Shown: piece by piece, positions 1 through 1,567 of the stretch
How the letters are laid out: every line of letters begins with the position of its first letter
Position numbering within the stretch: position 1 is the first letter of the stretch
Source of the DNA: Escherichia coli
Lineage (GTDB): Bacteria; Pseudomonadota; Gammaproteobacteria; Enterobacterales; Enterobacteriaceae
DNA length: 1,567 nucleotides
Assembly (NCBI RefSeq): GCF_003334355.1
Contig: NZ_QOWP01000085.1
Direction: 5' to 3' (one strand)
The notes under the pieces: generated by a model
Told to the model about the DNA's origin: nothing
Seen by the model: only the letters and a program-made list of their open reading frames with translations
Databases searched by the model: none
Made by a program: the position numbers and the translations under genes

Positions 1-1145
1 GACGATGCGGCTGCCGTTTTTGAGGATTCTGCACGGGTTTCCGACGCTTTCGCGTTCGTTTCGGATGTCTTCGCTGCGGAAGCAGACTTCGCTGCTGCGC
101 TGGCCTGTACAGCGGCTTCGCCAGCATTCGTTGTGGCTGTTGAAGCTGACGATGCAGCACTTTCTGCCGATTTTCCGGCGGCGGTGGCACTGGCTGAGGC
201 CTGCCCGGCACTTGTTGACGCGGCACTGGCAGATAATGCAGCCGCTGTTTTTGAGCCTGCCGCAGCTGAGGCGCTCTGTCCCGCTGCCGTTTCAGAAGAC
301 CTGGCGTTCGTCTCGGACGTTTTTGCCGCCTTCGCAGAATTTGCTGCCGCCGTTGCCGAGGAAGCGGCACTACTGGCGCTCGAGGCTGCGCTCGTTTCTG
401 ATGATTTTGCCGCCTCTTTTGAGGCCGCCGCATCCCGGGCTGAGGTGGCAGCTTCTGACGCCTTCGTGGTCGCGGCGGATGCAGAAGTGGCTGCTGATTG
501 TTGTGACGCTGCCGCATTCGTTTCTGACGTTTTCGCCGCAGCGGCACTGGTAGCTGCCGCGCTTTTTGAGGACTCTGCAGCAGCAGCACTTTTCGATGCT
601 TCACTGGCCTTTGTTGATGCCGTTCCTGCGCTGGAAGATGCTGACTGAGCAGATGATGCAGCCTGTCCGGCTGACGTGCTGGCGGCACGAGCTGAGCCTG
701 CAGCATCGGTTGTATGAGTTGCCGCCTCACTGGCAGATGTGCTGGCATCACTGGCTGACTTCTTCGCGGCTGCCGTGTTCTGTGCCACTGCGGACGCGTT
801 ACGCGCCACCTCTTCCACCATCAGTTCAAAACGTCGCAGAGCCTCCGGACGGGCATCATCCTCCGTCATGGCACCGAGAAAATCATTCAGCGTACCGGGT
901 CGGGAATCTTCATACACGGTGATGGTCCCGGCATGTGACGGCGGGAATCCTTCCACCAACAGAATAACGCTGTACTGACCGTACTCAACGTCCATGCTGT
1001 AACGCCCGGCTTCATCCGGATTTTCTGAGGCCAGCGTGTTCACCACCACCGCGGTGCTGTTACGTTTTGCTTTCAGCTGGATTGTGCAGTTCTGTACCGG
1101 TTTTCCTGTGCCGTCTTTCAGTACACCTGAAATCTTTACTGCCAT
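1..1145 (-). CDS. stf: Side tail fibre protein Stf (lambda orf-401-like), N-terminal 381 codons; 3' end runs off the window at position 1
   Basis: Hand translation of the minus strand from ATG (plus-strand 'cat' at 1143-1145) gives MAVKISGVLKDGTGKPVQNCTIQLKAKRNSTAVVVNTLASENPDEAGRYSMDVEYGQYSVILLVEGFPPSHAGTITVYEDSRPGTLNDFLGAMTEDDARPEALRRFELMVEEVARNAS, followed by a long Ala/Ser/Thr-rich region. The frame is open for 381 codons with no stop to the window edge. The N-terminus matches my recollection of lambda Stf/orf-401 and the gene sits directly downstream of lom as in lambda. Not in the ORF track because it lacks an in-window stop. Confidence 0.9.
   Translation of the reverse strand, partial: MAVKISGVLKDGTGKPVQNCTIQLKAKRNSTAVVVNTLASENPDEAGRYSMDVEYGQYSVILLVEGFPPSHAGTITVYEDSRPGTLNDFLGAMTEDDARPEALRRFELMVEEVARNASAVAQNTAAAKKSASDASTSASEAATHTTDAAGSARAASTSAGQAASSAQSASSSAGTASTKASEASKSAAAAESSKSAAATSAAAAKTSETNAAASQQSAATSASAATTKASEAATSARDAAASKEAAKSSETSAASSASSAASSATAAANSAKAAKTSETNARSSETAAGQSASAAAGSKTAAALSASAASTSAGQASASATAAGKSAESAASSASTATTNAGEAAVQASAAAKSASAAKTSETNAKASETRAESSKTAAAS
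3..806 (-). repeat. Protein-level heptad repeat array within stf (about 38 contiguous heptads, consensus x-[T/S]-S-A-[S/E]-x-A)
   Basis: Splitting Stf residues 114-379 into consecutive heptads gives Ser at position 3 in 31 of 38 heptads, Ala at position 4 in 25 of 38, and Ala at position 7 in 37 of 38, with no phase shift across the array. Counts are from hand translation. The DNA itself is not an exact tandem repeat. Confidence 0.7.
807..1145 (-). other. Stf N-terminal non-repetitive domain (residues 1-113), the part of phage tail fibres that usually attaches to the tail
   Basis: Residues 1-113 have mixed composition (aromatics, Pro, charged residues) with no heptad periodicity, in sharp contrast to the downstream Ala/Ser array. 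The attachment role is taken from general knowledge of lambdoid and other phage fibres, not shown by this sequence. Confidence 0.5.
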
Positions 1146-1148
1146 ATT

Positions 1149-1154
1149 CACCCC
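1149..1154 (-). promoter_or_regulatory. Putative Shine-Dalgarno region for stf
   Basis: Minus-strand sequence upstream of the stf ATG is ...UUUUUUGUGGGGUGAAU-AUG. The G-rich run GGGGUG sits at -9 to -4 relative to the A of ATG. Weak match to the GGAGG consensus; spacing is acceptable. Confidence 0.35.
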
Positions 1155-1156
1155 AC

Positions 1157-1183
1157 AAAAAAGCCCGCCTGAACAGGCGGGCT
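1157..1183 (-). terminator. Rho-independent terminator downstream of lom (minus-strand orientation)
   Basis: Minus-strand RNA would read AGCCCGCCU-GUUC-AGGCGGGCU followed by UUUUUU: a perfect 9-bp GC-rich stem (plus-strand 1162-1170 pairing with 1175-1183), 4-nt loop, and a 6-U tract (plus-strand A-run 1157-1162). It lies 27 nt after the lom stop. In the plus orientation no U-tract follows the hairpin. Confidence 0.65.
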
Positions 1184-1209
1184 GTCATAACACTGTGTTA
1201 CCTGGCTAA

Positions 1210-1567
1210 TCAGAACTTATAACCGACACCCACGATGAAACCGTCAGTGCGCCAGTCGCCACTGCCGGAGCCTTCATAAGCAATATCAATGGCCACGGAT
1301 TCGGTCGGGTTAAACTGCACGCCAGCTCCCCACGCCAGAGACGTGTTGCTGTGGCGACCGTCATCACTTCCGGTCAGCACGTCGTGCGTTTTCCCCTTGT
1401 TGTCAGTTACGCGGAGATAATCCCCGGAGAAAGTCGACACACGGCTGTAAGCCATACCCGCCATCGCATACGCGCTGAACCATTCATTCACGCGCACAGA
1501 CGGCCCCGCCATCACGCTGAACCAGCGGTTACGCACGGAATCTTCATGCCAGCGGGTATCGCTGTAA
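1210..1567 (-). CDS. lom: Lom outer membrane beta-barrel protein (Ail/Lom/OmpX/PagC family), C-terminal ~118 codons; true start lies beyond position 1567
   Basis: Minus-strand translation reads ...YSDTRWHEDSVRNRWFSVMAGPSVRVNEWFSAYAMAGMAYSRVSTFSGDYLRVTDNKGKTHDVLTGSDDGRHSNTSLAWGAGVQFNPTESVAIDIAYEGSGSGDWRTDGFIVGVGYKF then TGA (plus-strand 'tca' at 1210-1212). The frame stays open upstream of the track's GTG at 1536 through to the window end. The C-terminal aromatic residue and alternating hydrophobic last strand are typical of outer-membrane beta-barrels. Sequence matches my recollection of lambda Lom. Confidence 0.9.
   Translation of the reverse strand, partial: YSDTRWHEDSVRNRWFSVMAGPSVRVNEWFSAYAMAGMAYSRVSTFSGDYLRVTDNKGKTHDVLTGSDDGRHSNTSLAWGAGVQFNPTESVAIDIAYEGSGSGDWRTDGFIVGVGYKF

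Follow-up and report, generated by a model that had tools for sequence, protein, structure and literature searches.

The late operons of lambdoid phages are transcribed from pR' by RNA polymerase that carries the antiterminator Q, an intact copy of which is present in relatives such as lambda. Polymerase loaded with Q ignores terminators over thousands of base pairs, and the formation of hairpins in its RNA exit channel is blocked (PMC9388147). The moron, a concept of Juhala et al. (2000) and here taken as far as it is summarised in Cumby et al. (2012, PMC3594210), is an extra gene of a late operon that possesses its own promoter and terminator and is expressed from the repressed prophage. The expression of lom has been described in several ways. 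Lambda lom is listed among the genes expressed in lysogens (PMC7067206); a microarray study did not detect it in a lambda lysogen and called its promoter little known (PMC2147009); strong expression in lytic growth is mentioned in a passage of PMC9836094 that cites Liu et al. (2013); and the Lom orthologue of a Phi24B lysogen is expressed equally with and without induction (PMC3342100). A terminator at the 3' end of lom also has a history in sequence records. In the GenBank entry of phage mEp460 (NC_019716) it is labelled a rho-independent terminator and in that of Ayreon (MF807953) a terminator, and both records annotate a second terminator between J and lom. These labels presumably derive from prediction, and the same element, which is the subject of the present analysis, had therefore already been annotated by others. 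A literature search for names of the 'tJ1' type for late terminators after J returned none, and the Term-seq supplements of Adams 2021 and TERMITe 2025, consulted for 3' ends at the homologous site in the Rac prophage of K-12 (NC_000913.3, about 1,429,032-1,429,037), contain no lomR or stfR entries. The microRNA-size RNA 24B_1 of Phi24B, described as lying 'downstream of lom', was considered as a possible counterpart and rejected, as it belongs to a different 428-nt region; its sequence elements are absent from lambda (PMC4426718).

The window, by which we mean the whole stretch of 1,567 nt that was analysed, comes from an Escherichia coli contig (NZ_QOWP01000085.1) and contains the end of lom, the beginning of stf and the spacer between them, laid out as follows in the direction of transcription.

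1210..1566, minus strand: 3' part of lom, encoding an outer-membrane beta-barrel protein of the Ail/Lom family (translation, PHROG match and RefSeq annotation of the identical locus).
1146..1209, minus strand: lom-stf spacer, made up of the lom 3' UTR, the putative terminator and the stf ribosome-binding site (sequence and translations).
1188..1200, no strand assigned: perfect 13-nt palindrome TAACAC-A-GTGTTA (TAACACAGTGTTA) of 6-1-6 form, within the lom 3' UTR and shortly before the putative terminator.
1162..1183, minus strand: putative terminator hairpin AGCCCGCCU-GUUC-AGGCGGGCU, 9 bp of which 7 are G-C, with the tetraloop GUUC.
1157..1161, minus strand: U-tract UUUUU, which reads UUUUUUGU when the closing U at 1162 is counted; tract term nT 4.0-4.5.
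1146..1156, minus strand: GUGGGGUGAAU, which comprises the Shine-Dalgarno sequence of stf, GGGG at 1154..1151, and the distance from it to the start codon (sequence).
1..1145, minus strand: 5' part of stf (side tail fibre), an N-terminal domain followed by an Ala/Ser-rich region (translation and PHROG).

The lom portion, truncated by the window edge, comprises the last 118 codons of the gene with the stop TGA at 1212..1210 on the minus strand, and matches phrog_108 'Lom outer membrane protein' with E=1.8e-65. The start codon of stf lies at 1145..1143 on the minus strand, and its first 381 codons fall within the window and match phrog_3279 'tail fiber protein' (E=5.5e-129); in the RefSeq annotation of the identical locus the full stf reading frame is intact and encodes 1132 aa. 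Two complete E. coli genomes contain a prophage segment that matches the whole window at 100% identity; for many lambdoid phages the identity is 95-97%, and for lambda, across the lom 3' end, the spacer and the 5' part of stf, it is 86.6%. The genes of the parent locus are ordered J, lom, stf and tfa, and the segment has the standard lambdoid layout of J, terminator, lom, terminator and stf.

The plus strand of the stf portion shows some features of its own. Long open reading frames of 118-182 aa run antisense to the Ala/Ser-rich region at 5-553, 133-648 and 566-922; the lambda record similarly annotates 'orf206b' antisense within orf-401, and such frames are probably by-products of the codon periodicity of GCN-rich sequence and not genes. 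Matches to isrG, an Hfq-binding small RNA of Salmonella, occur on the same strand at 149-397 and 471-561, antisense to the same part of stf, with 30.6 and 24.9 bits (E=6e-6 and 3e-4), both below the Rfam gathering score of 100. The isrG model may itself overlap a tail-fibre gene of the Gifsy type.

Read as RNA, the spacer runs UUAGCCAGG-UAACACAGUGUUA-UGAC-AGCCCGCCU-GUUC-AGGCGGGCU-UUUUU-GUGGGGUGAAU-AUG. The hairpin, together with its U-tract hereafter called T_lom, begins 26 nt past the lom stop codon on the same strand and outside the translated region, and it combines a G+C-rich stem with a short loop on the transcribed strand. Directly 3' of the G-C-closed stem stands the U-rich tract UUUUUUGU, with U in seven of eight bases. 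The terminator prediction with a free-energy calculation on the minus strand, for which the first-pass annotation had called, gave a folding energy of -17.5 kcal/mol for the full 9 bp and of -15.9 when the closing A-U pair is omitted and 8 bp remain, and a d'Aubenton-Carafa-type score of +33 to +42, an approximate value computed with modern energies, on a scale where anything above 0 denotes a terminator. Within a context of 161 nt the pairing probability is 0.86 or more for every base of the stem and about 1.0 for the seven inner G-C pairs. When the window was shuffled 2000 times with dinucleotides preserved, a hairpin and T-run of this quality arose on either strand in only 10 cases, and T_lom ranks first among the terminator-like sites across 9 kb of the parent locus. 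Behind the hairpin the plus strand reads GTCATAAC, without a T-run, so that the signal is unidirectional. Judged by its sequence, the 3' end of lom on the minus strand is marked by a canonical Rho-independent terminator, whose strength is a predicted one.

Two distances proposed in the first-pass annotation prove to be exact, namely the 64 nt between the lom stop and the stf ATG (1209..1146) and the 11 nt that lie between the last U (1157) and the A of that ATG (1145). The accompanying description of the spacer as almost entirely a GC-rich hairpin plus U-tract was right about the hairpin but not about its extent, since hairpin and U-tract occupy 27 of the 64 nt (42%), the rest being a 26-nt 5' part and the 11 nt that hold the stf Shine-Dalgarno sequence. 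An Rfam search of the spacer found nothing at gathering score; the best overlapping match, Trp_leader (E=0.15), was rejected as an identity for the hairpin and reflects a generic resemblance between terminators. The ensemble fold of the minus strand also contains a weak long-range helix of 4 bp, GCCA/UGGC, between 1203-1206 and 1141-1144, in which GCCA lies just past the lom stop and UGGC overlaps the stf AUG, so that the helix would enclose the whole spacer; its upstream partner is absent from lom-less relatives.

The most revealing comparison is with lambdoid phages that have no lom. In Tritos, 4A7 and Lambda_2E9, J is followed by stf after 58-60 nt, and the spacer consists of TGA, about 20 nt and then GGGCGCCAGAAATGGCGCC-TTTTTTATTT-GTGGAGTGA(A/G)T-ATG, such that a terminator-like hairpin, which we call T_J, abuts stf at the same distance as T_lom does in the window. 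The same T_J hairpin stands between J and lom in the parent prophage of the window (L005 11710-11729), where, with its T-run, it forms a strong terminator-like site (L005 11710-11744) outside the window. Among 166 copies of T_J, lom comes next in 152 and stf directly in 14, and lom is thus present or absent among otherwise collinear phages. Across these copies T_J shows a true compensatory change from G-C to A-U (129 G-C, 32 A-U and 3 G.U). The lom segment, composed of GCAGAAAAGCGAGAGGTAATT-ATG, lom, its 3' UTR and T_lom, fills precisely the interval from the T_J T-run to the ribosome-binding site of stf, and a terminator about 11 nt ahead of the stf ATG is therefore always left, whether lom is gained or lost.

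Other lineages carry different elements at this junction. In Gifsy-1 a different ORF of 80 aa (phrog_2243, unknown function) lies between J and stf, and it is followed by a related hairpin, AAGCCUGCC-UGCG-GGCGGGCUU, with U6 behind it and a further 11 nt before the ATG. In PhiR12_2 the hairpin is bulged and unrelated, and its U7 stands 13 nt from the stf ATG. No such hairpin was found where a stf homologue stands directly behind another tail gene (Rac-SA53, Yersinia P840 and Serratia Tlacuache) or behind a divergently oriented gene (JenK1). On the sequences compared, a terminator next to the start of stf belongs to the junction ahead of stf and not to lom. The claim that this juxtaposition specifically fits lom as an independent unit does not survive, given T_J at the same distance in the three phages without lom and the other hairpins of Gifsy-1 and PhiR12_2. 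Non-homologous hairpins at one position are the strongest evolutionary sign of selection there for termination, or at the least for a hairpin with a U-run. A tentative and rather doubtful extension is that a terminator about 11 nt before stf acts as a conserved gate for the lambdoid side tail fibre, and that inserts of the lom type are promoter-less cassettes of ribosome-binding site, gene, 3' UTR and terminator which slot between the T-run and the stf ribosome-binding site. If so, expression of lom in lysogens would depend on leakage through the J terminator region, or on a cryptic start within it, and not on a classical moron promoter.

We also assessed whether lom or stf might have a promoter of its own. 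A consensus scan found no sigma-70-like promoter in the window, in agreement with the first-pass annotation, and in the parent locus the coding strand between J and the start of stf was likewise without one. With a position weight matrix, the best site inside lom facing stf scored 3.2 and the best in the 400 nt upstream of lom 5.6, neither above the background median of 6.4 per 400 nt of the same locus; the matrix is rough, suited to ranking only, and covers sigma-70-like sites but not those of other sigma factors or activator-dependent promoters. Because nothing promoter-like was found by these scans from the lom start to the stf ATG, stf would be transcribed only through T_lom, as had been claimed. 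The case of lom itself is less simple. It sits between two terminators, T_J upstream and T_lom downstream, with about 29 nt from the T_J hairpin to the lom ATG (21 nt after the T-run and ATT), and with no promoter above background its sequence does not, therefore, establish independent transcription of this lom. The earlier view of lom as an independently transcribed accessory gene is in keeping with its own terminator and with its presence or absence among phages, but not with what precedes it, which is a terminator and no promoter above background within 400 nt. Compared with the moron architecture, lom shares the terminator and the variable presence, and expression in lysogens has been reported for lambda lom, whereas it has no recognisable promoter and no G+C anomaly. 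Such an anomaly was considered and rejected, as the G+C content of lom (0.52-0.56) lies inside the range of J and stf (0.47-0.63).

T_lom is conserved in more than 200 lambdoid copies, and the same spacer is found in lambda (19586-19649), mEp460, the Rac prophage of K-12 (lomR'-stfR), Stx phages and more than 200 copies on IMG/VR prophage contigs. Hairpin variants number 18 in a set of 127 copies, and most of their differences affect the loop or turn a C-G pair into U.G; the extra pair at the top of the stem is G-C in lambda and U-A in the window, and a few singletons weaken the stem. The allele of the window, CCTGTTCAGG, is a minor one (3 of the 127). Covariation within T_lom amounts to one double change and several G.U changes, and 421 of 500 shuffles score as high, the copies being too alike for significance. 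Indirect support for maintenance of the structure comes from the unrelated hairpins at the same position and from the G-C to A-U covariation of T_J. Several alleles of the stf start occur behind T_lom (MAVKISG, MAAVKISG, MAVRISG and MTVKISG; L219, L228 and other loci selected by a T_J pattern), with a slightly altered Shine-Dalgarno sequence (GTGGGGTGAAT or GTGGAGTGGAT) and a constant spacing of 11 nt. A mosaic breakpoint at the stf ribosome-binding site was considered and rejected, since the high apparent variability of stf is an artefact of a one-codon indel (MAAVK versus MAVK) in an ungapped comparison. A supposedly different terminator before stf in one IMG/VR contig (L174) was likewise rejected, being an IS200-like insertion: an IS200-like element with tnpA (2100-2900 of that contig) lies directly upstream of the stf ribosome-binding site, and in a second copy the same IS end sequence begins 3 nt past the T-run of T_lom.

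Some of the conservation figures for the spacer are partly inflated, because loci L006-L125 were retrieved with a pattern inside the spacer, and conservation was recomputed on samples chosen otherwise. In loci chosen only by similarity to the Stf N terminus, 0 of 64 spacer sites were recurrently polymorphic versus 23 of 154 in the lom coding sequence next to it (p=4e-4). The loci selected by the T_J pattern gave 3 of 64 and 15 of 150, a difference that is not significant (p=0.28). The 26 nt from the lom stop to the hairpin are almost invariant, with singleton variants only, a statement to which the inflation also applies in part. The 13-nt palindrome within them is unchanged, singleton variants apart, in lambda, mEp460, Rac and nearly all lom-positive IMG/VR copies, and it is missing from one variant spacer that keeps the hairpin, from the junctions without lom and from Gifsy-1. 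That the spacer's 5' part is especially conserved is suggestive only, given the non-significant difference among the T_J-selected loci and the variant spacer that has no palindrome.

The two genomes with an identical copy place the element in a particular setting. Both carry it in a Qin-type cryptic prophage with dicA, dicB, dicC, cspI, gnsB and nohA. In strain 2018-05-5CC (L304 10630-15482) a truncated Rz-like gene and the replication genes flank an interval that contains IS3, genes for HEPN and DUF262 proteins, and an ORF of 238 aa whose only match is to a PHROG family of unknown function; the annotation of that interval shows neither Q nor a holin or endolysin, and terL is a pseudogene. The HEPN and DUF262 genes, which together with IS3 stand in place of Q and the lysis genes, are a possible defence pair. 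In strain PSS-12 (L305 11986-14567) Q is an N-terminally truncated pseudogene beside IS1203, with IS1 also adjacent. With Q absent or truncated in both genomes, an antiterminated late transcript driven by the prophage's own Q is therefore probably unavailable. The first-pass suggestion that the antiterminated late transcript supplies stf thus holds in so far as Q-loaded polymerase ignores terminators of this kind (PMC9388147), but meets in both hosts a Q that is missing or truncated. In these two genomes the terminator is expected to be a plain transcription block or a relic, and the part of the model that involves the antiterminated transcript describes the functional relatives and may be inoperative here.

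We propose the following mechanism of how T_lom might act. Polymerase without an antiterminator would transcribe the stable, G-C-rich hairpin of 8-9 bp and the U-rich tract and would release the transcript at about 1157-1161. Ordinary transcripts that cross lom would then end at T_lom, whichever lysogen promoter supplies them, and T_lom would insulate the side-tail-fibre genes stf and tfa. T_lom has its U-tract directly after the hairpin and is of the standard kind of terminator that Q suppresses. In an intact phage, stf, and tfa with it, would accordingly be made only from the late transcript by Q-carrying polymerase reading past hairpin terminators. Starting from what was observed, namely the anatomy, position and conservation of the element, the lack of a promoter-like site within the lom-stf interval and the equivalence with T_J in phages that have no lom, we consider it likely that T_lom is an intrinsic terminator which would end non-antiterminated transcripts at 1157-1161 and be read through by Q-loaded polymerase for the expression of stf and tfa.

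Several other readings of the same observations have to be weighed against this model. The hairpin and U-tract could act mainly on the translation of stf or the stability of its RNA and not on termination, if the hairpin kept the stf Shine-Dalgarno sequence single-stranded and the U-run served as an S1-binding enhancer, or if the two formed a protective 5' structure after processing of the late transcript. The strict spacing speaks for this, with 11 nt between U-tract and ATG in 234 of 239 counted copies and 11-13 nt for three unrelated hairpins, and so does the predicted fold, in which the four Shine-Dalgarno guanines are unpaired with probabilities of 0.46-0.95 next to the tightly paired stem. 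However, 11 nt is just the minimum into which a Shine-Dalgarno sequence and its spacer fit, stf homologues behind another tail gene do without any hairpin, and a hairpin with six U is textbook terminator design; a role in translation would moreover be compatible with termination. We regard this reading as unlikely. Much the same low probability attaches to the idea that, in this cryptic Qin-type prophage, the element is an inherited relic of a late operon that is never transcribed, its conservation resulting from recent descent and recombination among prophages. The state of both hosts fits such decay, with Q and the lysis genes gone, IS3 and a terL pseudogene in 2018-05-5CC, and a truncated Q beside IS1203 in PSS-12, as do the non-significant covariation of T_lom and the T_J-selected sample, in which retrieval was unbiased with respect to the spacer. 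Yet the same element is found in plaque-forming phages (lambda, mEp460, Ayreon and the PhiR series), other lineages have different hairpins at the same position, the stf frame is intact over its 1132 aa, and the Stf-selected sample shows a deficit of recurrently polymorphic sites in the spacer.

The lom 3' UTR might have a further role as an RNA or as a protein-binding site, in view of its invariant 26 nt and palindrome. In the form that would compete with termination, the 3' UTR and terminator together, about 51 nt with the palindrome, would be released as a small 3'-UTR RNA, or the palindrome would be a binding site for a protein on DNA. The near-invariance of the 26 nt upstream of the hairpin and the perfect 6-1-6 palindrome they contain are in keeping with this, and small RNAs of the Hfq type usually end in a hairpin followed by six U. 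Set against it are the Rfam search, in which no family was matched and Trp_leader stayed below the gathering score, the variant spacer that has lost the palindrome and still has the hairpin, and the inflation of some conservation figures by retrieval with a spacer-internal pattern. We consider this the least probable of the readings, and very unlikely. Termination at T_lom remains our preferred reading.

When T_lom is set beside described systems it proves to be an ordinary and already known feature, and the result carries little weight beyond that of a careful annotation. The comparative side of the work, in which phages without lom keep the terminator and lom itself lacks a recognisable promoter, may be of modest use for the study of how accessory genes enter phage late operons and for the engineering of lambda tail-fibre expression. 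The closest relatives are the terminators on the lom side of the tail-fibre gene in mEp460 and Ayreon, which share with the window identical flanks, the same U-tract and the same distance to the stf ATG. The hairpin of mEp460 and Rac differs from that of the window by a single base, a G that is T at the top of the stem in the window and adds a U-A pair, and there is otherwise no difference of substance between the mEp460 and Ayreon terminators and our own. A second, more distant likeness is that to T_J between J and stf in Tritos, 4A7 and Lambda_2E9, where a hairpin and T-run again precede stf, the last T standing 11 nt before the ATG, and the T-run is followed by a ribosome-binding site of the same kind as in the window, GTGGAGTGA(A/G)T. 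Despite this shared architecture, the T_J hairpin, GGGCGCCA-GAAA-TGGCGCCT, is unrelated in sequence to T_lom and follows J rather than lom.
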